A stretch of 64,000 nucleotides of DNA from Gammaproteobacteria bacterium (GCA_965226155.1 OZ245331.1:466681-530680), one strand, 5' to 3'; numbered from the stretch's first letter, positions 7,506 to 55,864 are shown. Translations and numbers: made by a program. The notes: generated by a model from the letters alone, not told the origin.

Positions 7506-7512
7506 TTATCCA

Positions 7513-7543
7513 GCCGCCCAATACTGAATAAGTATTGGGCGGC
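7513..7543. terminator. Bidirectional stem-loop between convergent genes
   Basis: Perfect 13-bp inverted repeat GCCGCCCAATACT…AGTATTGGGCGGC with a 5-nt loop, located between the TBDR (+) and the amidohydrolase (-). Confidence 0.5.
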
Positions 7544-7589
7544 CTACCTATCTAATTGACGAGACTTTTAAAGGACTGTAAGACTTAAT

Positions 7590-9002: not shown

Positions 9003-9005
9003 AAT

Positions 9006-10364
9006 TTAGTTTTCACCAGTTGTCTGCTCCGATTCTGCAAGGCAAATTAAATAAGGCTTTTGACCAATATAGAAAAGACAGGTACTGATAGCTAATGCCG
9101 AGCCCCCCGATATCATCAGAGAATATCGCAACATGGATAAGTCCTGGAATACATACTCTGTTAGGAAGGCAACGAAGGTCGGGCCCAGACCAAGCCCTAA
9201 AATAGATTGGGCAAAGAAATAGACTGCGGTGATTTGACCTCGCATACGTGCAGGTGACATGATCTGTAATGCGGCGGCGGCTACTCCGAACGGTGCCCCG
9301 GTAAGTAAGTGCAGTGGAAAAATTAACATCAGAGCAAACGTGGAACTTGGCATTAGCGGATAGAGAAGCCGTAGCCAGAATGACGCAAATGCAATCAGCA
9401 CCAATACTTTCATTTTGGCGTCTACACTAGAAGTTCTAGATAATCGGTCAGTAATTATGCCGGCAATTAATGCGCCGGTAAACTGGCCAACGGTCGCAGT
9501 AATCCCATAGTAAATACCACTCTGCTCCGGCGGCCACCCAAAACTTCGATGGAAAAACGTAATATCCCAAAACGCTGCTCCGTAACTGCCGATATTAAGA
9601 AAACCCATTCCAACATAAATTGAAGTAAGAGCTAGCCAATGTCGTCGCATATATGCCACGACTTTTGCTATTGAGGGCACGGTTTTACTATGACCCTGGC
9701 GTTTTGGTTCATTAACTGTAAACAGGATCATAGAAAACGCCAATCCGGGAAGGCCTACAGACAGAAATACAATTCGCCAAGGCGTGAGATCGCCAAGAAA
9801 CGGTACATTTATAAATCCCAGATCACCAACCAGCCCATTAGCCCAACCTAATACAACGGCACCCCCAAGGAAGGCAAATCCAAAGCCAAAGGCACCACCC
9901 ATAGTGCAGATACTAATGGCCAGGGTTAGTCGGTGCCGCGGAAAAATATCTGCAAGCATGGAATATGCGCAAGGTGCAAGCGCAGCCTCACCGATACCAA
10001 CACCCATACGCAGAAACAAAAGTTGCCAATAATTGTTGGCAAAACCACATGCAGCAGTTGCAACTGTCCATGTGACAACTCCAAAAATAATTAGCCATTT
10101 CCTGTTATAACTATCGGCCAAACGGCCCATAGGGATACCGAAAACAGTATAGAATATGACAAAACTTAAGCCACCAATATAACTTAGCTGGATATCAGTC
10201 AGGCCTAGGTCGGCTTTCATATCTGGTACAAGAATGCCGATAATCTGGCGATCAACAAACGAAAATACAAAGAAAATTGCAAAGATAATGGCAACGAACC
10301 AGGCATAGGCAGAGGGAGAATCACCTACACTTTCATATCGGGAGTTTGCAGTGGCGGTACTCAT
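9006..10364 (-). CDS. MFS transporter
   Basis: 12 predicted hydrophobic segments, a G-x-L-A-D-R/K-like loop (GRLADSYNRK), 452 aa. Confidence 0.8.
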   Translation of the reverse strand: MSTATANSRYESVGDSPSAYAWFVAIIFAIFFVFSFVDRQIIGILVPDMKADLGLTDIQLSYIGGLSFVIFYTVFGIPMGRLADSYNRKWLIIFGVVTWTVATAACGFANNYWQLLFLRMGVGIGEAALAPCAYSMLADIFPRHRLTLAISICTMGGAFGFGFAFLGGAVVLGWANGLVGDLGFINVPFLGDLTPWRIVFLSVGLPGLAFSMILFTVNEPKRQGHSKTVPSIAKVVAYMRRHWLALTSIYVGMGFLNIGSYGAAFWDITFFHRSFGWPPEQSGIYYGITATVGQFTGALIAGIITDRLSRTSSVDAKMKVLVLIAFASFWLRLLYPLMPSSTFALMLIFPLHLLTGAPFGVAAAALQIMSPARMRGQITAVYFFAQSILGLGLGPTFVAFLTEYVFQDLSMLRYSLMISGGSALAISTCLFYIGQKPYLICLAESEQTTGEN

Positions 10365-10688
10365 TGCTGATTTATCAGAGTTTAATTGCCGTTACAATCG
10401 TAATAACAGCATGGTTCATCTGTGCAATCCTGCAATGGAATTCTTTCTATGTACAGCTAACAGATGATCATTTTTTGAGTCTTCTGTAATCACGAATTAA
10501 AGTAACATACTATGATAGTATTTGGAAATCTCGATAACAAATTACCCCAGAAGAACTGAAATCGCGAGTTACAATATTCGGATAAGGATGAAATTGTATT
10601 CAACATTCCTTTTTTTAATATTACATTTCGCCATTTGACGTCGCATTAACAACAAACATGTTATAGATATTAAAAGGAGTATTTCGCG

Positions 10689-11297
10689 ATGAACATCACA
10701 CCTACCAAAACTGCTTTATTGATTATTGACCCTCAAAACGATTTTTGCCATCCAGAAGGCGTATTGGCTCAAAGTGGTGTAAATGTCACTCAACTCGTAA
10801 CTCTGGGGCCTAAGATCAAAGAACTAACAAAACTATGTCAGCGTGCTGGTATCCAGGATATCTGGACGCAACAAATCAATCATCCCGTTGATCATGGCCG
10901 TGCACACAAACAAATCAAGTCACATACTGATAAACGTAAAAAGTACGCAGCTCAACCAGGTAGTTGGGGAGCTGAATTCGTAAATGAATTAAAGCCGCTA
11001 ATTAATGAAAAATCGGAAGTGTTGGTAAAATACCGTTTTAATTGCTTCATGCACACACGTCTTGAACAATTATTGAAAGTCTTGGGCATTAATACCCTGG
11101 TTGTCTGTGGCGGGACAACCAATGCTTGTGTCGATACGACTGTGCGGGATGCTTACATGCTCGATTATGACGTTGTAATGATCGAAGATTGCATAGCCGG
11201 TGTGCGTGAAGACTGGCACAAAATGGCGCTAGAAGTCTGGAAGCATTATATAGGCGAAGTAATGAGTTTAGCAGAGTTTAAAAAGACACTTGAATAA
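10689..11297 (+). CDS. Isochorismatase-family cysteine hydrolase (candidate N-carbamoylsarcosine amidase-like)
   Basis: LLIIDPQNDFCHPEG and VVCGGTTNACVDTTVRDA (catalytic Cys), 202 aa. An AGGAG ribosome-binding site lies upstream. Confidence 0.8.
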   Translation: MNITPTKTALLIIDPQNDFCHPEGVLAQSGVNVTQLVTLGPKIKELTKLCQRAGIQDIWTQQINHPVDHGRAHKQIKSHTDKRKKYAAQPGSWGAEFVNELKPLINEKSEVLVKYRFNCFMHTRLEQLLKVLGINTLVVCGGTTNACVDTTVRDAYMLDYDVVMIEDCIAGVREDWHKMALEVWKHYIGEVMSLAEFKKTLE

Positions 11298-11669
11298 AAA
11301 ATGTGGTGTTGCTATGTGATGTAGACACTAAGCTTTAGCATTATTCGACCCTGTTTAATTTCCTAGTGAAAAGAGCAATGTCAGACAGTAAAATTCCTAA
11401 CAATATTCTTGAAATATGGTTTTCACTACTACTTGAGATAAGCTATCGTACTATGCTTCATCGCATAAATTATTATAAACAATAAGTTGATAATAATTCG
11501 AATTAATAGCTACTATACATTAAGTATTGATCTCCTTAAAATTGAAGTTTGGGAGGAATTTGCATTTGACAAACCCTAGATTGCTCAGTGGTTAACCATC
11601 CATTTTACTGAATAATTTGGTCGATAGTGCAAAGCCTCAAATTCCGTAGCACACAGACGAGGCCATGTA

Positions 11670-12281
11670 GTGTTAAAAATCATACCCGAAGAAACTGTAC
11701 TACTGGTTATTGATCCACAGAATGATTATTGCCACCCGGACGGAAACCTTGGTCAGAGTGGTGTTGATTTATCCGTTTGGAAAGAGGTAACGCCCAGAAT
11801 AAAGAAGTTAATTGAATTGTGTCGTAATGCTGGCATTAAGGATATCTGGTCACGACACTACAACCTCCCTGGTGATGTAGGCAAAGCTGCTAAACGCATT
11901 CAGGCCCACACAGCAAAACGTAAAAATCTGTCTGCTCAACCAGGTACCTGGGGTAGTGAGTTTGTTGATGAGTTAAAAACATTAGTTTCGGATGACACTA
12001 CAGTAATCGAAAAGTATCGATTCAGTGTTTTTTACGGCACAACACTGGAACCATTGCTTAATATCCTGGGATGCAAATTGATCGTAATTTGTGGTGGCAC
12101 AACCAACGCTTGTATAGATACAACAATCCGAGATGCCTACGTTAGAGATTATGATGTAGTCATGGTAGAAGATTGTATTGGCGGTGTACGCGATGACTGG
12201 CACAAGATGGCTACGGAAGTTTGGCAACATTACCTGGGAGATGTGGTTGCACTGGAACATTTTGAGCAAATGTTGTCCTGA
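11670..12281 (+). CDS. Isochorismatase-family cysteine hydrolase, tandem paralog
   Basis: About 60% identical by eye to the upstream gene (LLVIDPQNDYCHPDG; VICGGTTNACIDTTIRDA). GTG start. Confidence 0.8.
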   Translation: MLKIIPEETVLLVIDPQNDYCHPDGNLGQSGVDLSVWKEVTPRIKKLIELCRNAGIKDIWSRHYNLPGDVGKAAKRIQAHTAKRKNLSAQPGTWGSEFVDELKTLVSDDTTVIEKYRFSVFYGTTLEPLLNILGCKLIVICGGTTNACIDTTIRDAYVRDYDVVMVEDCIGGVRDDWHKMATEVWQHYLGDVVALEHFEQMLS

Positions 12282-12312
12282 GGAAATTTGATTTCACAAG
12301 TGAGGTGTAGTT

Positions 12313-14520
12313 GTGGTCGTAACAGAAGCCGCAATTAAACAGAAGACCGCAATCAGCCTGGATACAGGTCTAGATCCAATCACATTTCAGATATTGAGAA
12401 GCCGACTTGTTGCTATTAATGAGGAAGCCGCTACCACATTGAAACTGGTATCCGGTTCTACCGTAGCGACCGAAGCCAACGATATGAATACAGCCATCAT
12501 GAATGCACAGGGAGACGTCGTAGCGGTAGCGCGTTATTCATTAGCTAAGGCTACGACTATGTCACTGGTTGTTAAAGACATCGTAAAGAATTATCAAAAA
12601 AACCCGGGAATTAATGAGGGAGATGCATTTCTCACCAACGATGTTTATCTCGGCGTTCAACATCAAAACGATGTGGCGGTAGTCATGCCATTTTTTGTTG
12701 ACGATGAATTAGTTGCCTGGACCGGCGCGGAAGTGCATGAATTGGATGTGGGTGGCCCAGTTGCCGGTAGTGTGCAGATTGGGGCGAAGGATATCTATGG
12801 TGAAGCGCCGTTGATACCCCCTATTAAAATAGTCGAAAACTATGAAATTCGAAAAGACATAGAACGTAATTATTTGCGTATGTCGCGAGTGCCTGATTCA
12901 GTTGCACTCGACCTAAGAGCAAAATTTTCAGCCTCTAGTGTGGCATGTGACCGTTTAACCAAATTGGTCGAACGCTATGGACTCGCGGATGTAAAGCTGG
13001 CGATGGAAGGATCGTTGGATTATGCAGAACAAAAATTTCGGGCTTTATTGTCAACCCTGCCTAACGGAACCTGGCGCCATGTGACCTATCTGGATTATGA
13101 CGGAGATATCTATCCCATCCGTATTGCGATGACCAAGCAAGACGATGAACTGATATTTGATTTCACCGGCACTGCCAAACAGGCACCCGCCATTATTAAT
13201 TGTACCCGGCAATCGTTAATCGCTGTGTCTCTGGGTTATATTTGTATCAGCTTGGGTTGGGATATTCCCTGGAGTCCATCAGCACTGGGACGATTGGTAA
13301 CTTATGTCACGGAACCGGGAACGATTGTAGATTGCCAGTGGCCTGCCGGTTGCTGTAAATCCACTACCAGTATTTCCTGGTCAGTCGGCAAGGCATCAGG
13401 CTTGTTACTCGGCAGGATGCTGGCCTGCAGTGACGATACTCGTGCCAAGGCAATGGCTAGCTGGATAGGCTCCATGACCGTGGAAGAGTTATTCGGCACC
13501 GATAATGACGATAAGGTTTTTGGCGGCATCGTTATCGACACTATGTCCGGTGCGGCCGGTGCTCGAACTTTTAAGGATGGTATTGATACAGGAGGTTATC
13601 TGGGTTCCATGGGTATGGCGATTGCTAATGTTGAGTCTTATGAAGTCGAACATCCCATTTTATATTTATATCGACGTCAGGAAATCGATGGTGGTGGTGC
13701 AGGGACCTACCGCGGTGGTACCAGTCTCAGAAAAGCCTATACGCCCCATGGTGTCGATGAAATATCCTCATTCGTTGTGCATTGTATGGGAGTTGAGATG
13801 CCGTTATCGCCGGGAATGTACGGGGGCTTTCCAGCGGGAACCAACCAACTCACGATCATACGATCCACTAACGTTCATGATTTATTGAAAAATGGAACAG
13901 TGCCACAGTGTGCCGAAGAGCTGGAAGGAGAATCTGAAGTTCAGCAGGGTATTTCGATAAATCACCTGAAATACGGAGATGTATTTGTAGGAGGGACAAT
14001 GGGTGCAGGAGGGTATGGCGATCCGATCGACCGAGATCCACAACTTGTTCTGCATGATTTTGTCTCGGGTCTTACATCAGACAAGACGGCAAAGGAAATG
14101 TATGGAGTAGTAATAAAGGATGATGAGGTGGATAAGAAAGCGACCGCAAAACAACGTGATCAAATCCGTAGTCGTCGGCTTGCCGATGCAACAGACGCTA
14201 AAAATGCACCAGTCTCTAATGAAGGATTGCATCTCGGTTTGCACGTTGGTCAGCACCTCAGACTACTCAGCAAAGATGATGAAAAGTATATTGGGTGTTC
14301 GTGTGGGCGAATACTGTCACCAGCGCAAGAAAATTATAAAGAATGGGTTGCTGAAGCTAGACGCCCATTGAGCGCCGGGGGGCCACAATGTGATCCGTTT
14401 AAAAAGGGTCATGACCGCTTTGAATTGCGAGAGTACTATTGCCCAGAATGTGCTTCTTTGTTGGAAGTGGACATGGTTGAGAAATCAGAGCCGATAGTTT
14501 GGGATCTGCAACTGACTTAA
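12313..14520 (+). CDS. Hydantoinase B/oxoprolinase family protein (HyuB-like) with a C-terminal Cys-rich extension
   Basis: 735 aa with hydantoinase-B conserved blocks. The last ~140 aa carry CSCG…CDPF…CPEC cysteine pairs that typical ~580-aa HyuB proteins lack. Confidence 0.8.
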   Translation: MVVTEAAIKQKTAISLDTGLDPITFQILRSRLVAINEEAATTLKLVSGSTVATEANDMNTAIMNAQGDVVAVARYSLAKATTMSLVVKDIVKNYQKNPGINEGDAFLTNDVYLGVQHQNDVAVVMPFFVDDELVAWTGAEVHELDVGGPVAGSVQIGAKDIYGEAPLIPPIKIVENYEIRKDIERNYLRMSRVPDSVALDLRAKFSASSVACDRLTKLVERYGLADVKLAMEGSLDYAEQKFRALLSTLPNGTWRHVTYLDYDGDIYPIRIAMTKQDDELIFDFTGTAKQAPAIINCTRQSLIAVSLGYICISLGWDIPWSPSALGRLVTYVTEPGTIVDCQWPAGCCKSTTSISWSVGKASGLLLGRMLACSDDTRAKAMASWIGSMTVEELFGTDNDDKVFGGIVIDTMSGAAGARTFKDGIDTGGYLGSMGMAIANVESYEVEHPILYLYRRQEIDGGGAGTYRGGTSLRKAYTPHGVDEISSFVVHCMGVEMPLSPGMYGGFPAGTNQLTIIRSTNVHDLLKNGTVPQCAEELEGESEVQQGISINHLKYGDVFVGGTMGAGGYGDPIDRDPQLVLHDFVSGLTSDKTAKEMYGVVIKDDEVDKKATAKQRDQIRSRRLADATDAKNAPVSNEGLHLGLHVGQHLRLLSKDDEKYIGCSCGRILSPAQENYKEWVAEARRPLSAGGPQCDPFKKGHDRFELREYYCPECASLLEVDMVEKSEPIVWDLQLT

Positions 14521-14551
14521 AGCAACTTAAATTTTATTTGAGAGAGATTGA

Positions 14552-16648
14552 ATGGCTAGCAACTATGTTATCGGAGTGGATTCAGGTGGGACTTTTACTG
14601 ATTGTGTCGCGATCGCTGATGACGGTACCGTCACCCGGGCGAAATCTCCTTCTACACCTTCCGATTTTTCTATTGGGGTTTTGAATTCGATAAAACGCGT
14701 TGCTGAAGAATTGGATGAAGATTTCAATGACGTATTACTTAATAGTGCCCTTTTCGCACACGGCACAACTGTTGCGACTAATGCATTGTTAACCCGTACT
14801 GGAAGTAAAACCGGTTATCTGACAACCCAGGGACATGAGGACGCTATCATTATTGGTAGAACCTTCCAAAAGGTAGCCGGATTAACGGAATCTGAAGTTG
14901 CTGATATAGCTAACTTGGATAAAGCAATACCGATTGTCCCGCGTAGATTAATTTATGGTATTGAAGAGCGAATCGATAAAAAAGGTGAAATCATTACGCC
15001 TATTAATATGGATAGCGTCAGGAATGCGCTTACTGCTCTTGTGGCTGAAGGTGTTGAGTCTGTTGCGGTTTCCCTGTTGTGGTCATTTCTACGTCCTGAC
15101 CACGAAAACGCAATACGTGAGATGATCGAAACAGACTATCCGGACCTGCTGGTGTCTTATTCACACGAACTTGCCCCGGTTATTAAGGAATATGAACGTG
15201 GCGCAGCAACTATCATAAATGCCTATTTGACACGAAACGTATCCAGCTATTTAACCAAGTTGCAAGGTAAATTAGCTACTGGTGGAGTCAAATCGAATCC
15301 TGTAGTCATGCAATCTTCAGGCGGAGTAATGAGCATTGAAAAGGCCAAAAACCGACCGGTCAGATTACTGACATCGGGGCCAGCTGGTGGCGTGATCGGT
15401 GCCAAATTTCTTGGTGAAATTCTAAAACACCCCAATATTGTGACGACGGATGTGGGGGGTACCAGTTTCGATGTTGGATTAGTGGTAGAAGGCGAGGCAC
15501 AGTTCACTAATATTGCAACTTTCGATAAGTACGAGGTAGCGTTACCGGTAATAGATGTCGCAACTATTGGCGCCGGTGGCGGCAGCATTGGTTGGATTGA
15601 AGCGGATACAGGTGTTCTGCGTGTGGGCCCGCAAAGCGCAGGGGCAGAGCCAGGGCCAGCATGCTATAACATGGGTGGCACTCAACCGACAGTAACCGAT
15701 GCCAATGTAGTACTTGGGCGTATTAATCCAGATTATTTTCTGGGTGGTCGGCAAAAGTTGGATAGCGACGCATCTTATAAGGCCTTTGAATCGCTTGCTG
15801 AAGCGCTTGGAATGACCGTTCCGGAAGTTGCTTCAGGCATTATTGATATCGCTGACGAAAACATGGCCGATTTGGTTAGACGGGTAACCATAGAGCGTGG
15901 CTATGATCCACGTGAATTTGTATTGTATGCTTTCGGAGGAGCAGGACCAATGCATGCGGGTGCTTATGCTCGATCTGCCGGATGTAAATCTATACTTATC
16001 CCTAAGGAAGCATCTGAGTTTTCAGCTTTCGGGATAGCCGGCTCCGATGTAATGGTAGTGGAAGAACTTTCAAACCCCAGAACTGCGCCATTTAACCCGA
16101 GCGAATTTAATGCATTTTTCCAACAACTTGAACAATCAGCCGTGGAAAGCTTACGGGAGAATGGTATTGCAGATGACCGTATGCTGTTACAACGTTATGT
16201 ACGACTGCGCTACAAAGGACAAGTGCACGAAGTAGAAACACCAATCCCTGCAGGTAAAATTGGTGAAGAACAGGTAAATGAAATGCTCGATAACTTTGAC
16301 CGAATATACGAAACTAAATACGGTCACGGAACAACAACTTCTGATGTAACCATGTACGCCATTACATACCGTATACATGGTTTTGGCAGGATGAATATGC
16401 CGGAGCTAGTAAAACATAAACCAGGAGATGCGGTTGCTTCCTCTGCAGTAAAGGCCAACAGACAAGTCTACTATAGCGAAGCAGGCGGTTTTGTTGATAC
16501 GCCTATTTATGATGGAGCTTTGTTACGTTCAGGTCACTGTTTTTCAGGGCCAGCCATTGTGGAGTCAGTAGATACTACAACTATTTTACATCCAGATCAG
16601 GAAGTTGAGATAGATGCATACTTAAATATTCTGATCAAGATTTTATAA
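14552..16648 (+). CDS. Hydantoinase A/N-methylhydantoinase A family protein (HyuA-like)
   Basis: VIGVDSGGTFTDCVAI ASKHA/ROK-type N-terminus, 698 aa, immediately downstream of hyuB. Confidence 0.85.
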   Translation: MASNYVIGVDSGGTFTDCVAIADDGTVTRAKSPSTPSDFSIGVLNSIKRVAEELDEDFNDVLLNSALFAHGTTVATNALLTRTGSKTGYLTTQGHEDAIIIGRTFQKVAGLTESEVADIANLDKAIPIVPRRLIYGIEERIDKKGEIITPINMDSVRNALTALVAEGVESVAVSLLWSFLRPDHENAIREMIETDYPDLLVSYSHELAPVIKEYERGAATIINAYLTRNVSSYLTKLQGKLATGGVKSNPVVMQSSGGVMSIEKAKNRPVRLLTSGPAGGVIGAKFLGEILKHPNIVTTDVGGTSFDVGLVVEGEAQFTNIATFDKYEVALPVIDVATIGAGGGSIGWIEADTGVLRVGPQSAGAEPGPACYNMGGTQPTVTDANVVLGRINPDYFLGGRQKLDSDASYKAFESLAEALGMTVPEVASGIIDIADENMADLVRRVTIERGYDPREFVLYAFGGAGPMHAGAYARSAGCKSILIPKEASEFSAFGIAGSDVMVVEELSNPRTAPFNPSEFNAFFQQLEQSAVESLRENGIADDRMLLQRYVRLRYKGQVHEVETPIPAGKIGEEQVNEMLDNFDRIYETKYGHGTTTSDVTMYAITYRIHGFGRMNMPELVKHKPGDAVASSAVKANRQVYYSEAGGFVDTPIYDGALLRSGHCFSGPAIVESVDTTTILHPDQEVEIDAYLNILIKIL

Positions 16649-16655
16649 TTGTTCA

Positions 16656-17153
16656 TTGAATATGAGTGAGTCCCCCACAAAAGATGGAGACCTGGATAAT
16701 TTACGTCGAGCTATAGCACTAGCGATGCTATCGAGAAAGAATGGAAATAATCCTTTCGGTACCGTGCTAGCAGATCAGGAGAGAACTATTTTACTTGAAG
16801 CTGAGAATTCTACTAAAACAGATCGAGACTGCACCGCACATTCAGACATTAATTTAATACGCAATGCTTGGCAGAAGTTTGATGCTGAATACCTGGCAGA
16901 ATGCACCCTTTATACGAGCGCTGAACCATGCGCGATGTGTGCCGGAGCAATTGTGTGGGCGAATATTCGTCGTGTGGTATACAGCCTTGGTAACACTGCA
17001 TTGTATGATCAAATGAATCCACGTGCTGATGGGTTAGGACTTTACACTCCGTGTCGTGAAATTTTTAATGGCGCACCCTGGAAAATTAAAACCATTGGAC
17101 CGTTACTTGAGGAAGAAGCAAGCAAAGTACATCAAGATTTTTGGCAAAAATAA
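16656..17153 (+). CDS. CDA-fold nucleoside/nucleobase deaminase (cytidine/deoxycytidylate deaminase family)
   Basis: The zinc-ligand motifs HSDI and SAEPCAMCAGAI (H-x-E…PC-x-x-C) are present; the likely ATG start is at 16662. Confidence 0.75.
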   Translation: MNMSESPTKDGDLDNLRRAIALAMLSRKNGNNPFGTVLADQERTILLEAENSTKTDRDCTAHSDINLIRNAWQKFDAEYLAECTLYTSAEPCAMCAGAIVWANIRRVVYSLGNTALYDQMNPRADGLGLYTPCREIFNGAPWKIKTIGPLLEEEASKVHQDFWQK

Positions 17154-17162
17154 AATATAGTA

Positions 17163-18278
17163 ATGAGGAATTTTATTCTTAAACGATTGCAGAAAGCCAT
17201 GGACGAAAATGGGTTCGATGCTGTTATCTGTTTGTCTCCAGAAAACTTTTCTTATGTATCTGGCTTTATCGTGCCTTCACAACAATTGATGCGTTGGCGG
17301 CATGCGGCTGTCGTTGTAACTGCTGATGGCAGGTGTGCATATTTAGTTGTTGATATGGAAGAAACAACAATTAAAAGCAAGTCTAAAAATATTGAAGTGC
17401 GTGTTTGGGGGGAATTTACAGACAAACCAATGCAAGTGTTAGCTGGTTTATTATCGGATATGGATTTGACGAATGCAAAAATTGGCATAGAAATGGATTA
17501 TCTTTTTGCAGGTGACTTTGCAGAACTTAAAAATCAAATGCAGGGCGCAGAGTTACACCCGGCTGAAAATATTCTAGCGCGATTACGCCAGATTAAAACG
17601 GCAGAAGAAATTGATTTAATGCGACGCTTGTCACGTATTGCAGATGAGTCAATTCATAATACGTTAATGGATACTTTTGCTGGTAGTTCAGAAATGGATA
17701 TTGCTGGAGGATTAACAAAAAACATCTACAATCTTGGTGCTGATAATTTCAAACTCATGATTGTTGCAACAGGTGAGCGTAGTGTATTTCCTAATGTTGG
17801 CCCTTCTTTGCGTAAACTGAAAAAAAGTGATGTTTGCCGAGTTGAAATATTTTCTGTTATCAATGGATATCATGCTGGCGTTTGTCGTACAGCTTGTGTA
17901 CAAACACCACCACCAAATGCAGAAGATATTTGGAAAAATTTAATTGAATGTAAATATTTAGTATTAGACATGATCAAGCCAGGTGCCAGCTCAAAAGAAA
18001 TCTACGAAGCTTTTATAAAGCACTTGAACAAACTTAATCTACCACCAATTAAATTTATAGGGCATGGCATTGGCTTGCATTTGCATGAAGAACCTTATTT
18101 GGGAATGTATTCTGATGTACCACTGAATGCAGGAATGGTGTTAGGGATAGAGCCCTTAGTGTATGACACTGGATACGGATTTGGTATGCAAAACAAAGAT
18201 ATTATCTTAGTGACCGAAACCGGATCAGAAATCCTGTCTGATTTTACAAACACAGACACATTATTAACAATTAACTAA
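17163..18278 (+). CDS. M24-family protein with creatinase/prolidase N-terminal domain
   Basis: The creatinase-like N-domain is followed by a pita-bread M24 domain (HGIGLHLHEEP, GMVLGIEP). The first two canonical Asp metal ligands appear substituted (…VEIFSVINGYHAGVCRT). Confidence 0.7.
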   Translation: MRNFILKRLQKAMDENGFDAVICLSPENFSYVSGFIVPSQQLMRWRHAAVVVTADGRCAYLVVDMEETTIKSKSKNIEVRVWGEFTDKPMQVLAGLLSDMDLTNAKIGIEMDYLFAGDFAELKNQMQGAELHPAENILARLRQIKTAEEIDLMRRLSRIADESIHNTLMDTFAGSSEMDIAGGLTKNIYNLGADNFKLMIVATGERSVFPNVGPSLRKLKKSDVCRVEIFSVINGYHAGVCRTACVQTPPPNAEDIWKNLIECKYLVLDMIKPGASSKEIYEAFIKHLNKLNLPPIKFIGHGIGLHLHEEPYLGMYSDVPLNAGMVLGIEPLVYDTGYGFGMQNKDIILVTETGSEILSDFTNTDTLLTIN

Positions 18279-18314
18279 AGTCAACTAGATATAAATTTAT
18301 TAAATAAAATTTGT

Positions 18315-19754
18315 ATGAAAACCCTGATTGAAAATCTTGATTTTATATTCACAGTTGATAAACACGATTCCATTATTCGCAATGCAGCTGTTATTATTGA
18401 AGATGATAAAATCGTTGACATTGGGCCTATGGGTGATGTGTTGGTCAGGCACGATCGTGATGGTTTTAAAAATATTAAAGACGGCACACTTAAAGGTATA
18501 TGCCCAGGTTTTATCGATTCCCATGTGCATTTATCTGAAACACTTTCAAGGGCAGTGTTTCCAGATAATCTAAATACGCGTGCGTGGGTTTTTCACTGGG
18601 GCAAACCTTTTTATGCACACATAACAGCAGACGATGAATATTGGGGGGCACTTCTTGGCATTACAGAGATGCTTCGCGCAGGGACAACCTGTTTTCTCGA
18701 TATGGGATCTCAATATGACCCGGGTATTACAATCAGAGCAATGGAACAAACAGGTATACGAGGTATAACAGGACGTCATGCTGCAGATAATCCACCAGAG
18801 ATGATGCCTCGCGGTTGGGCAGAAGAAATGGTTAAACATCATTTTTTCTCTAACGCTGAAGAGGCTCTTAAAGAACTAGAGTCATGTGTAGACAAATATC
18901 ACGGCATATTGGATGGCAAAGCACGTTGTTGGGTTAATATTGAAGGGAAAGAACCCTGTACTCTGGAACTGCATGTTGGTGCCCGTAACTTGGCGGAAAA
19001 ACTAAATGTTGGTACAACATACCATTTAGCAACAAGTATTGAAGAAGCCAATGTTTGCGAGGGTAAATATGGTGTATGGCCCATAACCCGGATAGAACGG
19101 GCTGGCGGTCTGGGTCACAATCTGGTGGTCGCACATGGTGCGGCAGTAAGAGATGAAGAAATCGGTATGCTTGCTACTTATGATACCAAAATAGCGTTTT
19201 GTCCTTCTTCTTCTTTTAAATTAGGTAAAGGTGCTACTGCGATTGGTAAATACCCTGAAATGATTGCAGCCGGGGTGACCGTTGGTCTTGGAACGGATGG
19301 TGTATCAGCAGCTGGAAATATGAATCTCATGCGGCAAATGTTTATGATAGCAGGTATGTTCAAGGATGCTCGTATGCAACCGGATATTTTTACAGTACGC
19401 CAGGCACTACGAGCAGCTACTATAGATGGAGCAAAGGCCTTGATGTGGGATGATGAGATCGGTTCTTTAGAAATAGGAAAGAAAGCAGATTTCGTTATCT
19501 TTGACCTAGACCATATTGAATGGACTCCTTTTCATGATCCATTACAAGCATTGGTTTTTTCAGCTTCAACTGCTTCGATTGAAGAAACTTGGGTCAATGG
19601 TGTGCCATTATATGAAGGTGGTTACATTGCTACAGTCGACGAACAGGAAATAAAACGAAAGGCACGTATTCTTGCTGCAGCCGCTGTTAAACGTGCCGGT
19701 CTTGATCAAGAAGATGTACCAACTATAACTACACTTTATGATAAAGGTAATTAA
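18315..19754 (+). CDS. Amidohydrolase-family deaminase (cytosine/creatinine/guanine-deaminase-like, TRZ/ATZ type)
   Basis: GFIDSHVHL HxH motif, 479 aa, later HGAAV and GTDG blocks. Confidence 0.75.
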   Translation: MKTLIENLDFIFTVDKHDSIIRNAAVIIEDDKIVDIGPMGDVLVRHDRDGFKNIKDGTLKGICPGFIDSHVHLSETLSRAVFPDNLNTRAWVFHWGKPFYAHITADDEYWGALLGITEMLRAGTTCFLDMGSQYDPGITIRAMEQTGIRGITGRHAADNPPEMMPRGWAEEMVKHHFFSNAEEALKELESCVDKYHGILDGKARCWVNIEGKEPCTLELHVGARNLAEKLNVGTTYHLATSIEEANVCEGKYGVWPITRIERAGGLGHNLVVAHGAAVRDEEIGMLATYDTKIAFCPSSSFKLGKGATAIGKYPEMIAAGVTVGLGTDGVSAAGNMNLMRQMFMIAGMFKDARMQPDIFTVRQALRAATIDGAKALMWDDEIGSLEIGKKADFVIFDLDHIEWTPFHDPLQALVFSASTASIEETWVNGVPLYEGGYIATVDEQEIKRKARILAAAAVKRAGLDQEDVPTITTLYDKGN

Positions 19755-19786
19755 CAACAATTCACTAATTTAAATGAGGTAAGCAA

Positions 19787-19981
19787 ATGCCTGTAGTAAC
19801 CGTACAATTATGGAAAGGTCGAACTGTTGATCAAAAACGTAAGTTAACAAAAGCAATCACAGACGCCATGGTCGAACATGCCGATGCAAACCTAGATGCT
19901 CTTCATGTCATTATCCAAGAGTATGAATTGGAAGACTGGGCCCGTGCTGGGGTTCTAGGCGTAGATAGAGAGGATGTCTAG
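19787..19981 (+). CDS. 4-oxalocrotonate tautomerase-family protein
   Basis: 64 aa beginning MPVVTVQ (catalytic Pro1 after Met removal); size typical of 4-OT. Confidence 0.6.
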   Translation: MPVVTVQLWKGRTVDQKRKLTKAITDAMVEHADANLDALHVIIQEYELEDWARAGVLGVDREDV

Positions 19982-19983
19982 CC

Positions 19984-20364
19984 ATGTCACTAGACCGAAA
20001 AATTCAACCTCGCCCAGTTTATATACATCACTTATTGCTGATGGTTAGTGATTTAGAAAAATCAAAAAGTTTTTATCTAAATACTCTCGGTTTTACACAA
20101 CGACTTGATGCCAAACCATTGCCCGATGGACGTCCATTTATTTCAACAATGGAAGGACTCGGCTTAACAGCAGGTGGGCCGGGTAATATGAAGCAATTGG
20201 ACCATCTGGCATTTGAAGTAAAGAATGTAGATGCGATGTATGAAAAGCTTAAAAAACTGGGGGCAGAATTTCCGAGAGGTGAAATTGGGCCAGGTCCGTA
20301 TGGTAAAGCTATATATGTACTAGATCCGGATGGTAACGAATTAGAATTATTCGAAGTTGATTAA
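19984..20364 (+). CDS. VOC/glyoxalase-family protein
   Basis: 126 aa with a beta-alpha-beta-beta-beta module pattern (HHLLLMVSDLEKS…LDHLAFEV…ELELFE). Confidence 0.6.
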   Translation: MSLDRKIQPRPVYIHHLLLMVSDLEKSKSFYLNTLGFTQRLDAKPLPDGRPFISTMEGLGLTAGGPGNMKQLDHLAFEVKNVDAMYEKLKKLGAEFPRGEIGPGPYGKAIYVLDPDGNELELFEVD

Positions 20365-20430
20365 AATCATTGACAACTTGTTGCCCATAGACCTAATAAT
20401 TAGTTAACTAGTAGATGCAAAATAGAAACA

Positions 20431-20700
20431 ATGATTTTATATGTTGCTTATTTCAAAGTAATCGATAAGGAGAAAGAAAAGGCGATCCTTCAGAATCACC
20501 TCGATTATGTGAACAGGCTTTTGCAAGAAAAAATTATTATTGCAAAGGGGCCTTTTTTAGATAAAAGTGGAGGTTTAATCATATATCATACATCCTCTCT
20601 GGAAGAAGCAACTGATTATGTAATGAATGATCCAGTAATTCTCGATGGAGCGAGAACAGTTGAAATCAAAGAATGGAAATCCTCGATAAATAATTTATAA
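20431..20700 (+). CDS. YciI-like small protein
   Basis: 89 aa with the YciI-family pattern (…LQNHLDYVNRL…IIAKGPF). Confidence 0.45.
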   Translation: MILYVAYFKVIDKEKEKAILQNHLDYVNRLLQEKIIIAKGPFLDKSGGLIIYHTSSLEEATDYVMNDPVILDGARTVEIKEWKSSINNL

Positions 20701-20766
20701 ATTTATTTTAAGAATTCATTTGCAAATATATACAGTTGATCATAGATAGCATCAATTAGATACACG

Positions 20767-22152
20767 ATGATAATTAGTATTTTAGATTTGTTTAAAGTGG
20801 GTATCGGACCATCGAGCTCTCATACAGTTGGTCCAATGGTCGCAGCAAGACGTTTTCTGTTATCCCTAGTCAAGAATAATAAGCTGAATCGTATTGATAG
20901 AATTTCGACAGAGATTTATGGGTCACTCGCCTTAACCGGAATTGGCCACGGTACCGATAAAGCCATCTTGTTGGGTTTATCCGGAGAGCAGCCACACCTG
21001 ATCGATCCGGATGAAGCTGACAACATAGTTGCCCAAATCAAAGACAAGGGTGAGTTGAAATTGTTAAGTGATAAGCAAATACATTTTCACCCGGATAAAG
21101 ATTTGATATTTAATCGTCGTAATCGCCTGCCGTATCATTCCAATGGCATGAAATTCACTGCCCTGGATCAAGTTCAGAATATTCTAGCTGAAGGTATCTT
21201 TTACTCCATCGGTGGCGGTTTTGTTCTTGAGCAATCTGAGATTGATACCAATGCACAACAGTCCAACAGTGAATCTACTCCTGAACCTCATGCATTCAGC
21301 TCAGCAAGGGAGCTATTAGAGATCGGCTACAGTACAGGTATGAATATTGCTGAGATTGTGCTTGCAAATGAAAATGCGATTCATCCTACTAGAGACATCT
21401 ATGAAGACATAAATCTATTATGGCAAACGATGCAAGACTGTATAGACAGAGGATGCCATGAAGACGGTGTATTGCCGGGCCGTCTAAAAGTGGAACGACG
21501 TGCCGGTAAATTATTTAAACAACTATCCGACCGCGGTGAGCGCGACCTAGATGAACCCTTAGCAGTAATGGACTGGGTGAATTTATGGGCCATTGCTGTG
21601 AATGAGGAAAATGCAGCCGGTGGAAGAGTAGTGACAGCACCCACGAACGGTGCTGCCGGGATAATACCCGCAGTGCTTCGCTACTATGATCGCTATTGCA
21701 AAGGTGCAAATCAGCAAGGCATTAATAATTTTTTTCTTACTGCTACTGCTATTGGCTCATTATACAAACAAAATGCCTCCATATCGGGTGCTGAAGTGGG
21801 TTGCCAGGGTGAAGTCGGTGTCGCCTGTTCCATGGCAGCAGGCGGTTTGACAGCAGCTTTGGGTGGCAGCAACGAACAGATCGAAAACGCTGCTGAGATC
21901 GGAATGGAGCATAACCTCGGTTTGACCTGTGACCCGATCGGCGGTCTGGTACAAATACCCTGTATTGAACGAAATGCTATGGGCGCAATCAAAGCCATTG
22001 ATGCATCACGTTTGGCAATGCTCGGTGATGGTACACATAAAGTATCGTTGGACAAAGTTATTGCAACGATGAAACAGACCGGAAACGACATGCAATCTAT
22101 ATATAAGGAAACCTCCAAGGGCGGTCTGGCGGTAAATGTAATCGAATGTTAA
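20767..22152 (+). CDS. sdaA: L-serine ammonia-lyase (iron-sulfur dependent, single chain)
   Basis: The N-terminal DLFKVGIGPSSSHTVGPM motif and 461 aa match SdaA along the full length. Confidence 0.9.
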   Translation: MIISILDLFKVGIGPSSSHTVGPMVAARRFLLSLVKNNKLNRIDRISTEIYGSLALTGIGHGTDKAILLGLSGEQPHLIDPDEADNIVAQIKDKGELKLLSDKQIHFHPDKDLIFNRRNRLPYHSNGMKFTALDQVQNILAEGIFYSIGGGFVLEQSEIDTNAQQSNSESTPEPHAFSSARELLEIGYSTGMNIAEIVLANENAIHPTRDIYEDINLLWQTMQDCIDRGCHEDGVLPGRLKVERRAGKLFKQLSDRGERDLDEPLAVMDWVNLWAIAVNEENAAGGRVVTAPTNGAAGIIPAVLRYYDRYCKGANQQGINNFFLTATAIGSLYKQNASISGAEVGCQGEVGVACSMAAGGLTAALGGSNEQIENAAEIGMEHNLGLTCDPIGGLVQIPCIERNAMGAIKAIDASRLAMLGDGTHKVSLDKVIATMKQTGNDMQSIYKETSKGGLAVNVIEC

Positions 22153-22295
22153 TCAGTTTATTCGTGCATGTACAAACCATTGATAAGTGTAAATAATAGT
22201 TTTTTAAAAAATGACGGAAATTAAATAGAGCAATGGGGGGTTGAAATTAATACTCTAATTTACTGCCACTGCAGTAGGTGAAATTATTTTATATT

Positions 22296-22459
22296 GCGCA
22301 ATCAGGCTGCCAGCACTTCTGTTGCTGGTTGATACTCATAACCCAGATCTTCAGCGACAGCCTGGGATGTAATACGGCCCTTGTACACATTCAGGCCGTT
22401 TCTTAAATCCAGATTTCCCAGCAATGCTTTTTTATAACCATTGTTCGCCAGTGCCGTGC
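22296..22459 (-). pseudogene. Short gene remnant (C-terminal fragment of an unidentified protein)
   Basis: The minus strand translates to …TALANNGYKKALLGNLDLRNGLNVYKGRITSQAVAEDLGYEYQPATEVLAA* with no upstream start, inside the 525-bp gap after sdaA. Confidence 0.2.
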
Positions 22460-22677
22460 AAGTGCGTCAACCGATATATACATCTTCTGTTGGGAAGTGG
22501 CACCATTATGAAGAACAATTGCAAATACTGACCCACTTTTTCACCGAGCAGGAGGTAAGCTTTTAAAGCACGTTGCTACCCGTCAGAAAATAAATACTCA
22601 AGTAACGATCGAACAGGAAACATACAATCATCAAGAATTCGTTGCTGTTGGTAGTTATTTAAGAAATAAAGGGCGAC

Positions 22678-23336
22678 TCACTTCGTAAGAGCATTAACTA
22701 CATCACCTTTTTTCGCTAACCAGCCATAACTATTTTGTTCGAATTCTATCCAATTAATTACGTTATTATGCAAATCTTGTGTTAATCCAGCACAGCAATC
22801 ATCAACCAGGAGACAAAAATAACCAAGATCAACGGCAACGCGCAGAGTTGAACTTATGCAGCATTCAGTTATGATGCCGGTGATAATCAGATGTGTAATC
22901 CCGAGTTTGCTTAGTTGCTTATCACAGGATGTCCTGACGAATGCACTATATCCGTTTTTATCGATAACAATCTCGCGATCTAGTGGCTTTAGTTCGTCAA
23001 TGAATTCGTGCCCGGGTTCGCCACGAATAAGCATTCACCCCAATTTCCCTTCTTGACCGACACAGGGTCTACTGTGCGGCGCAATTCATGGCAATCACTT
23101 AAATCCGGCGCCCATCCTTCACATGTGTGCACTATTGTTAGTTCAGCCTGCCTTGATGCTTCAAGTAAATTACGAATTCGGGGAATTGTCGATTGGCAGT
23201 GACTGATATCGTAGCCCAGACTGGCAAGGCCTCCTTGTGGCAGCAGAAAATCACCTTGCATATCAATAACCAGCAAGGCGGTATGCTTCGGGTCAAATTG
23301 GCATGTTGATTTACCTCTGCAGTTAATCTCAATCAT
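22678..23336 (-). pseudogene. Isochorismatase-family hydrolase gene disrupted by a frameshift
   Basis: Two overlapping ORFs, 22989-23336 (N-terminal half, LLVIDMQGDF) and 22678-23034 (C-terminal half, GYSAF…ITGIITECCISSTLR), together form one isochorismatase. The frames switch near 23035-23050. Confidence 0.7.
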
Positions 23337-24366: not shown

Positions 24367-24367
24367 T

Positions 24368-25402: not shown

Positions 25403-25424
25403 ATCTTGCCCATATAAGTTGTTT

Positions 25425-28038: not shown

Positions 28039-28052
28039 TACCTAATATTTTT

Positions 28053-29247: not shown

Positions 29248-29303
29248 TCACTACATTTAATATCATGAATATTATTTATTAGTTATATAAATAATCGATA
29301 TTA

Positions 29304-39629: not shown

Positions 39630-39796
39630 AGATGATATCTAACCTAAATTTAGTCTAGGCTCATACACTATTCAATTATATTATATTGTCAAATACATAA
39701 TATTTATGTTGATTATATATATTCTCTAATATCATATATTACCAGATAGACTAAGCTGAATTTTAATAAGCTTGTTCAACCAGTTACAGGGCGAAA

Positions 39797-41047: not shown

Positions 41048-41085
41048 TTATCTCGGTTAAATGACAGCTGCAGGTTAGAATCGTC

Positions 41086-43622: not shown

Positions 43623-43784
43623 AGTCTGAAATATTTTAATTTAGATGGGTATCTTCTATATCAGCGAACAAGTTGTCTCATAGTAATAGTTTTTATGTTA
43701 TGGAGGGTATAATTGCGTGAAATTATGGTAAATTGTAATATCGATGGAATAAAGCACCAATTTGGTTGCGGTATTGACCTAAGT

Positions 43785-52973: not shown

Positions 52974-52975
52974 CG

Positions 52976-53575: not shown

Positions 53576-53580
53576 ATCTA

Positions 53581-55365: not shown

Positions 55366-55369
55366 TTAC

Positions 55370-55849: not shown

Positions 55850-55864
55850 GAGATAATCTAAACT

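Follow-up and report, generated by a model that had tools for sequence, protein, structure and literature searches.

A gammaproteobacterial gene cluster combining TRZ/ATZ-type deaminase, ATP-dependent hydantoinase-type, and isochorismatase-fold amidase genes, with a possible role in cyclic ureide catabolism

The 64,000-nucleotide stretch of DNA analyzed here, which we call the window, belongs to a Gammaproteobacteria bacterium (GCA_965226155.1 OZ245331.1:466681-530680) and contains, at positions 10689 to 22152, a cluster of hydantoinase-type, isochorismatase-fold, and deaminase-family genes. A first-pass annotation had read this cluster as a creatinine degradation route that leads through N-methylhydantoin and N-carbamoylsarcosine to sarcosine, with sdaA as an exit step. 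The open reading frame (ORF) table gives ten co-directional ORFs, with the cluster beginning and ending exactly where it had been placed, and Pfam and NCBIfam searches confirm all of the gene families named for it, so that a co-directional cluster with these domains was borne out. The region is a genuine gene cluster, and a chance arrangement can be dismissed because the same families recur in equivalent neighborhoods of independent metagenomic and isolate loci. For this comparison, 97 loci (L001 to L097) were gathered, each of which was scored for homologues of every window gene; L001 and L003 are alphaproteobacterial (L003 being a Rhizobiaceae metagenome-assembled genome [MAG]), L007/L092 is a Rhodospirillales MAG, and L097 is gammaproteobacterial. 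The intergenic gaps from the second isochorismatase gene, iso2, to sdaA measure 2 to 66 bp, and those from iso2 to the VOC gene measure 2 to 36 bp, which suggests that the genes from iso2 to VOC are cotranscribed. The first isochorismatase gene, iso1, lies 372 bp from iso2 and is probably a separate transcription unit, so the tight spacing first described for about 11 kb holds for iso2 to sdaA but not for iso1. The functional unit reaches upstream as far as window position 1.

The two isochorismatase-fold cysteine hydrolases are encoded on the plus strand by iso1 (positions 10689 to 11297; PF00857, E value of 5e-42) and iso2 (positions 11670 to 12281; E value of 1e-38), and their products are 57% identical. 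Loss of the Asp-Lys-Cys triad had been set beforehand as a result that would overturn the creatinine reading; the triad is intact in both paralogs, as D14/K114/C147 of iso1 and D15/K115/C148 of iso2 align to D24/K133/C166 of RutB. Among solved structures, the amidases match RutB (E value of 1.9e-18), BiuH (2.4e-15), and TrtA (7e-14), and NCBIfam likewise ranks RutB and BiuH first, with scores far below the respective cutoffs (TIGR03614, 85.5 and 93.8 bits against 378; BiuH, 72 to 74 bits against 370). These closest characterized relatives, namely, RutB and the biuret and triuret hydrolases, all cleave terminal carbamoyl groups. The N-carbamoylsarcosine amidase (CSHase) chains 26st and 1nba match iso2 at E values of only 2.4e-6 and 1.8e-5 and over the C-terminal half or two-thirds. 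The window amidases share the fold and triad of CSHase (EC 3.5.1.59) but do not affiliate in sequence with the characterized CSHases, and the assignment as N-carbamoylsarcosine amidase did not hold against the far stronger RutB match. We regard iso2 as the predicted decarbamoylating amidase of an ATP-dependent module; its orthologs, which are 49 to 85% identical, adjoin HyuB in nine loci, and both iso1 and iso2 fall in the HyuB-linked Iso clade of a neighbor-joining tree.

Downstream of iso2 on the same strand lies a HyuB-type catalytic subunit of 735 amino acids (positions 12313 to 14520; PF02538, E value of 4e-107) that is fused at its C terminus to an acetone-carboxylase-gamma-like Cys4 zinc domain (Acetone_carb_G, PF08882, 37.8 bits against a cutoff of 21), which also matches 5l9w_C (E value of 5.5e-4). 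This HyuB-gamma protein carries a D57/H117/D120/H142 metal tetrad and the invariant cysteines C662/C664/C710/C713, and its homologues are at most 85% identical and nearly all metagenomic. It is followed by the HyuA-type ATP-binding subunit (positions 14552 to 16648, plus strand; Hydant_A_N, Hydantoinase_A [E value of 1e-97], and Hydant_A_C), with DSGGT at residue 10, DVGGT at residue 300, and GAEPGP at residue 364. These ATP motifs and the tetrad (Asp-His-Asp-His) have been defined for the enzyme class (PMC8453981), and since the tetrad is common to hydrolases and carboxylases, it does not discriminate between them. The pair therefore has the two-component organization and intact motifs of N-methylhydantoinase (EC 3.5.2.14), but these are superfamily-wide features, and its closest relative is not a demonstrated N-methylhydantoinase of the same architecture. 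HyuA is nearly equidistant from N-methylhydantoinase 7hk5 (419 bits, marginally first), Apc gamma (411 bits), and caprolactamase alpha (410 bits), and for HyuB the scores are 181 bits with acetophenone carboxylase delta, 159 bits with N-methylhydantoinase 7hk5, 143 bits with caprolactamase beta, and 140 bits with acetone carboxylase alpha. The N-terminal sequences of the Pseudomonas putida 77 N-methylhydantoinase map to subunits of 692 and 594 amino acids (PMC8453981), and the small subunit is too short to hold a gamma domain. Given the higher score to Apc delta and the extra gamma domain, HyuB cannot be taken as an N-methylhydantoinase ortholog. Best homologs among oxoprolinase or acetone carboxylase systems with no link to ureide metabolism had been named as the other overturning result; the best solved relative of HyuB is indeed a carboxylase subunit, but its conserved partners, an amidase and a deaminase, preserve a link to ureide-type chemistry, and neither overturning result was obtained. 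The carboxylase-type subunit set (HyuB-like, Cys4 zinc domain, and HyuA-like) is present, but the scores stay far from equivalog level (ApcD, 215 bits, and ApcC, 436 bits, against cutoffs of 1500) and the context is not that of ketone catabolism.

A second conserved block, which we call the core, occupies positions 17163 to 20364 of the plus strand. Its first gene encodes an M24-fold hydrolase (positions 17163 to 18278; PF01321, 77.5 bits; PF00557, 122.5 bits) that had been described as having a creatinase-type N-domain. The Creatinase_N domain and M24 fold are present, but the closest relatives are not creatinases, as the protein scores 113 bits to prolidase 1pv9, 56.6 bits to creatinase 1chm, 46 bits to 7yto, and 37 bits to 1kp0. 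The metal positions D209/D220/H284/E313/E327 of 1pv9 correspond to E228/G239/H301/E330/K345; three of the five canonical ligands are replaced, with an identical pattern in the L001 and L008 orthologs, and the protein lacks the D, D, H, E, E set of M24B Xaa-Pro dipeptidase and aminopeptidase P. This loss of the canonical dinuclear metal ligands suggests that it might be a nonpeptidase amidine or amide hydrolase. M24 orthologs in related loci are 56 to 79% identical.

The second core gene encodes Ami479, a TRZ/ATZ-type metal-dependent amidohydrolase of 479 amino acids (positions 18315 to 19754; Amidohydro_1 and NCBIfam matches) with an HxH motif at residues 70 to 72. Its best NCBIfam matches are 5'-deoxyadenosine deaminase, TRZ/ATZ, and 8-oxoguanine deaminase families, all below cutoff, and its neighbors in the PDB are MTA/SAH deaminases, 8-oxoguanine deaminase, and triazine hydrolases. 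Ami479 is a predicted deaminase or deiminase, although not one of the CodA subfamily of creatinine and cytosine deaminases to which it had been likened. After the window's own protein, the top 119 matches are 74 to 84% identical, most of them being exactly 479 amino acids long and all but one 472 to 481 amino acids long, and they include proteins of Afifella pfennigii and Pseudochelatococcus lubricantis.

The core continues with a 64-amino-acid protein of the 4-oxalocrotonate tautomerase family (positions 19787 to 19981; PF01361, 65.7 bits against a cutoff of 22), a gene that was absent from the first-pass annotation. The protein starts with MPVVTV and has the N-terminal Pro of the family after removal of Met, with NCBIfam equivalogs just below cutoff. 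It is 55 to 84% identical to the tautomerases of L008, L091, L092, L093, and L094, and in L094 to L097, the tautomerase gene lies directly upstream of a gene for a fused isochorismatase::VOC protein (Iso::VOC). In the window, the tautomerase gene is followed after 2 bp by one for a single-module VOC/glyoxalase-fold protein (positions 19984 to 20364; PF00903, E value of 7e-16), the unfused counterpart of the VOC domain of that fusion, which shares 41 to 81% identity with the VOC domains or genes of L008, L091, L092, L093, and L095. Judged from sequence, orthology to the known enzymes of the creatinine route fails for all four of the proteins compared with them.

Comparison with about 20 related loci indicates that the core and the ATP-dependent module are two evolutionarily separable modules. 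The core, composed of M24, the 479-amino-acid amidohydrolase, the tautomerase, and Iso::VOC, is found in many Proteobacteria without hydantoinase; in the window, both the VOC protein and the amidase are unfused. It stands alone in one gammaproteobacterial MAG and one 1.7-Mb metagenomic contig, and in the isolates A. pfennigii and P. lubricantis, it is accompanied by MR_MLE, opine-dehydrogenase-like (OctDH), DpaA-like, and cyclic amidohydrolase genes, an NMT1-type ABC transporter, and further GntR, RidA-family, and CobW genes. HyuAB are absent from these four core loci. All four core genes are present in 6/6 loci in which the neighbors of Ami479 are visible, and Ami479 always adjoins M24. The ATP-dependent module consists of an isochorismatase, HyuB with a fused or separate gamma, and HyuA (positions 11670 to 16648 of the window) and is found in L001, L003, L007/L092, L008, L091, L012, L013, and L093 at 49 to 85% identity. 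An Ami479-like amidohydrolase accompanies it in all of these loci except L003, mostly as an adjacent paralog of 466 to 477 amino acids; in L001, the M24-linked 479-amino-acid gene lies about 5 kb away. The gene content and catalytic motifs of the cluster thus come with a linkage of families that is conserved across phyla, and this linkage backs, at the family level, the order of deaminase, ATP-dependent HyuA/HyuB, and isochorismatase-fold amidase that had been proposed.

Both modules occur together in the window, where they form a single co-directional array, and in L001, L008, L092, and L093. The closest relative is L008, whose proteins are 83 to 85% identical and whose gene order is HyuA, a 476-amino-acid amidohydrolase, M24, tautomerase, and VOC. 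In neighbor-joining trees, the M24-linked Ami479 proteins group in one clade, to which the HyuA-linked forms are a sister grade, and the VOC-fused Iso clade stands apart from the HyuB-linked Iso clade, which suggests that deaminase, ring opener, and amidase come in two parallel sets. Moreover, L093 has HyuB-gamma, HyuA, and Iso alongside OctDH and DpaA, where Afifella has the cyclic amidohydrolase Ami448, and this swap suggests that HyuB-gamma/HyuA and Ami448 may be alternative ring openers. In L001 and L003, whose HyuB-gamma proteins are 74 to 76% identical, the module adjoins soxB/D/A/G-family genes and a type III glutamine synthetase gene (gmaS-like, 673 bits), and L001 additionally has a GATase/GXGXG/glutamate-synthase trio that is N-methylglutamate-synthase-like. 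These neighbors would belong to the N-methylglutamate methylamine pathway or to sarcosine oxidase, and they hint at an N-methyl substrate. RidA-family genes occur in the two isolates, an SDR gene lies beside the core in L096 and L097, and L096 also has an aldehyde dehydrogenase gene. Transporters and regulators of catabolic type accompany the genes, either NMT1-type ABC or TonB plus MFS systems and either GntR or LysR.

Related loci also bear on the history of the HyuB-gamma architecture. At positions 2339 to 13686 of L092/L007, two ATP-dependent modules stand in tandem, with gamma as a separate 99-amino-acid gene in one and fused in the other, and they document a gamma fusion or fission event inside one locus. 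At positions 1477 to 7211 of L003, a second pair, consisting of a gamma-less HyuB of 593 amino acids and a HyuA of 690 amino acids, lies a few kilobases from the gamma-type module and is accompanied by a RidA-family protein and a class III aminotransferase; its subunit sizes resemble those of the P. putida 77-type N-methylhydantoinase. Two kinds of proteins without Pfam matches were seen as companions of the core, one of 216 to 228 amino acids between the cyclic amidohydrolase and the tautomerase (L094, positions 20268 to 20918; L095, positions 14983 to 15669) and one of 525 to 544 amino acids beside Iso::VOC, the copies of which are 71% identical (L097, positions 12667 to 14244; L096, positions 5543 to 7177). 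Both are absent from the window.

Three further genes of the cluster are particular to the window. The CDA-fold zinc protein (positions 16656 to 17153, plus strand; PF00383, E value of 3e-20) starts at a TTG codon and has as its best PDB matches a mycobacterial free-base deaminase and the Bacillus subtilis guanine deaminase. It had been listed as a deaminase, and the fold is as described, but the protein has H62-S63-D64 where its relatives have HPE, the expected HxE thus being replaced by HSD, while PCAMC with C92 and C95 is kept. The gene has no counterpart in the related loci compared, an arrangement specific to the window, and sits where L008 has its HyuA-adjacent 476-amino-acid amidohydrolase. 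The YCII-family gene (positions 20431 to 20700, plus strand; PF03795, E value of 8e-12) is co-directional, yet no counterpart was found among the related loci compared. SdaA, the L-serine ammonia-lyase (positions 20767 to 22152, plus strand; TIGR00720, 672.9 bits against a cutoff of 345.1), is the sole protein above a curated NCBIfam equivalog cutoff, and its closest named homologues come from gammaproteobacterial MAGs at no more than 72% identity, which places the host among uncultured gammaproteobacteria. Since sdaA is absent from all 90 related loci compared, its proposed place as a conserved exit step was rejected; cotranscription in the window is possible, but the gene does not belong to the conserved part of the system, and a pathway role is unsupported. 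Promoter and terminator scans of positions 10300 to 22700 gave counts no better than those for shuffled sequence and are therefore uninformative. An Rfam E-value scan of positions 1 to 30000 found no riboswitch, the only matches being insertion sequence (IS)-associated and psRNA2-like at about 28 kb, and repeats around the iso1/iso2 intergenic regions amounted to nothing beyond paralogous coding similarity.

Upstream of the cluster, all genes have counterparts in related loci except those for an MFS transporter and for Ami470. The window opens with the C-terminal part of an enolase-superfamily (MR_MLE) protein (positions 1 to 534, plus strand; PF13378 MR_MLE_C, 112 bits; TIGR02534 muconate cycloisomerase family, 87 bits), only the 3' end of the gene being present because it is cut by the window edge; it is 46 to 49% identical to genes adjoining M24/Ami479 in L001 and L094 and is part of a conserved accessory set. 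It is followed on the same strand by the gene for OctDH, an opine-dehydrogenase-like NAD(P) oxidoreductase (positions 534 to 1616; PF02317 Octopine_DH, E value of 2.5e-34), whose sole PDB relative, the opine dehydrogenase of Arthrobacter (1bg6), aligns at full length with 155 bits and which is 52 to 55% identical to its L001 and L094 counterparts. The next gene encodes a DpaA-like dehydrogenase, resembling dipicolinate synthase subunit A (positions 1625 to 2524, plus strand; NF006162 DpsA, 212 bits against a cutoff of 261; PF16924 DpaA_N); it is always paired with OctDH, and the pair occurs in L001, L093, L094, and L095. Ami448 (positions 2531 to 3877, plus strand) is of the allantoinase/dihydropyrimidinase/hydantoinase type, an ATP-independent cyclic amidohydrolase whose NCBIfam scores of 286 bits to allantoinase and 274 bits to D-hydantoinase are below cutoff; it has an HxH motif at residue 61 and is 71% identical to an A. 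pfennigii protein encoded downstream of OctDH-DpaA.

A LysR-type regulator (positions 4097 to 4984, minus strand; HTH_1 and LysR_substrate) is 52 to 53% identical to the LysR proteins encoded divergently from HyuA in L001 and L003 and is probably cognate to the HyuB-gamma/HyuA module. A TonB-dependent outer membrane receptor (positions 5199 to 7505, plus strand; Plug and TonB_dep_Rec) is 39% identical over 775 amino acids to the receptor encoded beside the M24-Ami479-tautomerase-Iso::VOC core of L097 and is likely to be an uptake component. A second TRZ/ATZ-type metal-dependent amidohydrolase or deaminase, Ami470 (positions 7590 to 9002, minus strand; NF006056, 314 bits against a cutoff of 391; TRZ/ATZ and 8-oxoguanine deaminase matches), has HxH at residue 103, a motif present in all three amidohydrolases, and is about 25% identical to Ami479; a second, distant amidohydrolase paralog recurs in L091 to L093. 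The MFS transporter gene (positions 9006 to 10364, minus strand; PF07690, E value of 2e-40) is divergent from iso1. A triad of TonB receptor, TRZ/ATZ amidohydrolase, and MFS transporter genes is found twice in the window, at positions 5199 to 10364 and 42213 to 47321, with copies that are about 23 to 28% identical.

Our results lead us to propose, with a probability of about 0.55, that positions 1 to 22152 form a composite catabolic island through which an amino-substituted cyclic ureide or cyclic amidine would serve as a nitrogen source, the substrate class most likely being a creatinine-, cytosine-, or hydantoin-like small N-heterocycle. The catalytic steps, their order, and the substrate are proposed from family membership and linkage. 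The substrate would be taken up through the TonB receptor and the MFS transporter, and Ami479, perhaps together with Ami470, would remove an exocyclic amino or imino group as ammonia to leave a cyclic ureide. HyuA would then phosphorylate the stable ring amide with ATP for hydrolysis at the HyuB-gamma metal site or, alternatively, the ring would be opened independently of ATP by the M24 protein or Ami448. Attack on the resulting N-carbamoyl compound by the Cys nucleophile of iso2 or iso1 would release ammonia and CO2, and the tautomerase/VOC pair, OctDH, the DpaA-like protein, and MR_MLE might turn what remains, an amine or enamine, into a keto acid plus an amino acid. The general scheme draws its main support from the parallel deaminase/opener/amidase sets, from the fusion of Iso to VOC, and from L093, which has HyuB-gamma/HyuA where Afifella has Ami448. 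Another cyclic ureide, which had been left as a fallback to creatinine, fits the evidence better than creatinine itself. The N-methyl neighbors point to a creatinine-like substrate, and the tautomerase with its strict linkage to the amidase, together with the RidA, SDR, and aldehyde dehydrogenase genes, points to a pyrimidine-like one, an unsaturated ring from which an enamine or enol would arise; neither is decisive.

Several points weigh against this proposal. As no protein other than SdaA reaches an equivalog cutoff, each activity is a family-level guess, and the tautomerase, VOC, MR_MLE, OctDH, and DpaA-like proteins have likewise been given their roles by guesswork. The CDA-fold protein retains its zinc site, but its catalytic Glu is an Asp, and it may be inactive or catalyze a different chemistry. 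Ami479 could open a ring or deiminate instead, as its group includes HutF and HutI-like matches were seen, and the core is without an obvious ring opener if M24 is not one. HyuB-gamma lies slightly nearer the carboxylases and has a carboxylase-type zinc domain and so may carboxylate rather than hydrolyze. In addition, a literature search found no paper on the cluster and no experimental datum on any ortholog.

The proposed island is best judged against the systems that it resembles. The creatinine route through N-methylhydantoin in Arthrobacter, P. putida 77, and Corynebacterium glutamicum ATCC 14067 uses the same three superfamilies in the same logical order, likewise with an ATP-dependent HyuA/HyuB, a D-K-C cysteine amidase, and an M24/Creatinase_N protein nearby. 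Conversion of creatinine to N-methylhydantoin, of this by HyuB-gamma/HyuA and ATP to N-carbamoylsarcosine, and of the latter by iso1 or iso2 to sarcosine, with M24 as a creatinase, would be a special case of our proposal, and one that we consider unlikely. It would account for the presence of all four hallmark families of the two known routes, for the deposited N-methylhydantoinase as the top solved match of HyuA, and for an M24 protein without canonical peptidase metal ligands, creatinase being a nonmetallo member of the M24 fold. The soxB/D/A/G and gmaS/mgs-like genes beside the L001 and L003 modules point to an N-methyl product, and an opine-type dehydrogenase could in principle split sarcosine to glyoxylate and methylamine. 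Each of the enzymes, however, departs from its counterpart; the amidases are RutB/BiuH-like, with RutB matched at an E value of 2e-18 and CSHase only at 2e-6 and 2e-5, the deaminase is of TRZ/ATZ type, HyuB has the gamma zinc domain for which the small P. putida 77 subunit (594 amino acids beside one of 692) is too short (PMC8453981), and M24 is nearer to prolidase, at 113 bits, than to creatinase, at 57 bits. In the characterized creatinine clusters, by comparison, the deaminase is of CodA type, a creatininase is present, and the CSHase shares 60% identity with that of Arthrobacter (PMC8864220), a gene set from which the window enzymes differ. Moreover, the window adds genes that have no role in a creatinine-to-sarcosine route (tautomerase, VOC, MR_MLE, OctDH, and DpaA-like); of these, the tautomerase and VOC genes are strictly conserved, yet neither an enol nor an enamine arises on the way to sarcosine. 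Two or three distinct deaminases are present for the single amino group of creatinine, no homologue of sarcosine oxidase (sox) or mgd genes was found within the 64-kb window, and sdaA is not conserved. The Rut pathway (RutA to RutG) offers a second special case, in which cytosine- or isocytosine-type bases would be deaminated to uracil or thymine and opened, hydrolytically and without oxygen, to ureidoacrylate or N-carbamoyl-beta-alanine by HyuB-gamma/HyuA with ATP or by M24 or Ami448 without ATP, perhaps after reduction by the pair of DpaA-like protein and OctDH; the RutB-like amidase would then decarbamoylate, and the tautomerase, joined by RidA in relatives, would lead from aminoacrylate to malonate semialdehyde. 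We think this, too, improbable. RutB is the best characterized relative of both amidases in NCBIfam and the PDB, with a triad that aligns residue by residue, the conserved tautomerase adjoins the amidase and could handle an aminoacrylate-type product, and RidA-family proteins, a family that includes RutC, are encoded in the Afifella and Pseudochelatococcus clusters. The SDR (L096 and L097) and aldehyde dehydrogenase (L096) would suit malonate semialdehyde, Ami448 resembles dihydropyrimidinase, the CDA-fold and TRZ/ATZ-type families include cytosine-type deaminases, and the solved relatives of the NMT1 binding protein include, weakly (E value of 9e-4), a pyrimidine-precursor binding protein. 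This evidence is purely contextual, however, and the RutB scores of 85 to 94 bits lie far under the equivalog cutoff of 378. The window operon has no RutA/RutF oxygenase system, and opening would be hydrolytic and ATP driven rather than oxidative; the only luciferase-like genes are split, are encoded on the other strand, and match RutA at 36.6 bits. Neither an M24 nor a HyuAB enzyme is known to open uracil, and the methylamine pathway neighbors of L001 and L003 would be left unexplained, as would MR_MLE and the opine dehydrogenase, which have no obvious role.

It is also conceivable, if rather unlikely, that HyuB-gamma/HyuA is an ATP-dependent carboxylase of the acetone/acetophenone carboxylase kind, acting on an enolizable carbonyl or heterocycle supplied by neighboring enzymes. 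The window pair shares with the Apc/Acx carboxylases a Cys4 zinc subunit or domain (PF08882, matching 5l9w_C, with its four cysteines invariant), the tetrad Asp-His-Asp-His, and a HyuA-type ATP partner; among solved structures, the B subunit is nearest to Apc delta (181 bits), an enol could come from the conserved tautomerase, and caprolactamase, a solved hydrolase of the class, is described as an (alpha-beta)2 tetramer of two subunit kinds only. Apc delta leads the hydrolases by little (181 against 159 and 143 bits), HyuA stands equally far from N-methylhydantoinase, Apc, and caprolactamase, and the tetrad does not discriminate. In contrast to Apc/Acx, gamma is fused (split in some relatives), there is neither a second ATP-binding paralog nor an epsilon subunit, and the invariant carbamoyl-type cysteine amidase and deaminase partners speak for nitrogen release, not ketone assimilation. 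The ATP-dependent lactamases (caprolactamase CapAB, the P. putida KT2440 lactamase, and 5-oxoprolinase) have the same two-subunit organization, ATP motifs, and metal site and likely the same role, that of driving the unfavorable hydrolysis of a stable ring amide; the window B subunit, at 143 bits to CapB, differs by its extra gamma domain, and it is encoded alongside a carbamoyl amidase and a deaminase, not a transaminase and enzymes of beta-oxidation. The s-triazine, biuret, and triuret pathways (BiuH and TrtA) share TRZ/ATZ amidohydrolases, a related isochorismatase-fold amidase, and a CDA-fold free-base deaminase, a type that acts as ammeline or guanine deaminase, but scores are below cutoffs, the cluster has no cyanuric acid hydrolase or allophanate hydrolase, and its M24, tautomerase, and opine dehydrogenase genes are foreign to s-triazine catabolism. 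Of the nonpeptidase M24 hydrolases, creatinase and the ectoine hydrolase DoeA (75 bits against a cutoff of 613) have Creatinase_N and the pita-bread fold in common with the window protein, which is closest to an archaeal prolidase. Finally, there might be no single pathway but an accretion of independent N-heterocycle cassettes in a rearranged island, with incidental co-direction. This would agree with modules that are found separately elsewhere, with a window rich in transposases, split genes, and repeated TonB/amidohydrolase/MFS triads, and with the restriction of sdaA, YCII, and the CDA-fold gene to the window arrangement. We find it quite improbable, since several unrelated loci (L001, L008, L092, L093, and the window) have both modules, the paralog pairs Ami479/Ami476 and Iso/Iso::VOC indicate related chemistry, and the short gaps from iso2 to VOC suggest cotranscription.

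Genes for N-heterocycle catabolism and insertion sequences also predominate in the remainder of the window. On the minus strand, an isochorismatase gene at positions 22678 to 23336 is split into two overlapping ORFs, and luciferase-like (F420/LLM-type) oxidoreductase genes, one of them apparently split, follow at positions 23362 to 25453; the split genes of this region are either pseudogenes or long-read assembly frameshifts. The idea that these minus-strand genes are a Rut remnant was not supported, as the LLM proteins are of the F420 type (151 bits, against 37 bits for RutA). A second sdaA at positions 29304 to 30685 (minus strand) is split into beta-domain and alpha-domain ORFs that overlap by 22 bp and are 54% and 76% identical to the intact SdaA of positions 20767 to 22152. 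Two rve-type transposase genes lie at positions 27993 to 29287 and 33856 to 34764, the first being flanked by sub-threshold Rfam psRNA2 matches that are probably IS ends, and the region looks like a rearranged island. Positions 36023 to 42111 encode a two-gene molybdenum hydroxylase of the xanthine dehydrogenase family, a stand-alone GcvT-like aminomethyltransferase that resembles tetrahydrofolate-dependent demethylases, and then an adenosine/adenine-deaminase-family protein, and they may constitute a methylated-purine module. A further N-heterocycle or aromatic catabolic block at positions 50777 to 60874 comprises Rieske/VanA-type oxygenase components, two cyclase-family proteins, a polysaccharide-deacetylase-family hydrolase, two SDRs, an amidase-signature enzyme, and an MFS transporter. 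Homarine catabolism, which had come to mind on account of the methylamine/N-methylglutamate neighbors and the DpaA-like gene, was rejected because the published homABCDER operon encodes a peptidase and an aldehyde dehydrogenase beside a flavin reductase/oxygenase pair (PMC13236597) and has neither HyuAB nor an isochorismatase.

The kind of pathway that we propose is known from the creatinine to N-methylhydantoin route, of which the window would hold a nonorthologous variant that differs in HyuB architecture, in extra, strictly conserved partners, and in a widely distributed core on which no prior study was found. The public labels "N-methylhydantoinase" and "creatinase," which pipelines assign and which feed claims of creatinine degradation in metagenomes, such as those of sponge symbionts, overstate what sequence comparison supports and are not justified at the level of orthology.

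The Ami479 family reaches 74 to 84% identity across alpha- and gammaproteobacteria and has no characterized member; together with the presence of the complete core in every locus with visible neighbors, this conservation marks the core as an unrecognized route of organic-nitrogen use. As there are two cultured carriers of the core, A. pfennigii (GCA_000688515.1) and P. lubricantis (GCA_011762225.1), the substrate question is testable. HyuB-gamma/HyuA stands between the ATP-dependent lactamases and the carboxylases, and its substrate would reveal the role of the zinc domain and extend the reactions of the class. As a bolder speculation with rather long odds, the conserved set made up of a TRZ/ATZ-type deaminase, a tautomerase, a ring opener, and a RutB-like cysteine amidase joined to VOC by fusion or coupling might encode an undescribed, oxygen-independent hydrolytic route in which HyuB-gamma/HyuA and ATP would open an aromatic or resonance-stabilized cyclic ureide, such as uracil or thymine, directly to a ureidoacrylate-type product. 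If true, this would be a third solution to pyrimidine degradation beside the reductive and the oxidative (Rut) pathways, and HyuB-gamma would represent a new class between lactamases and carboxylases.

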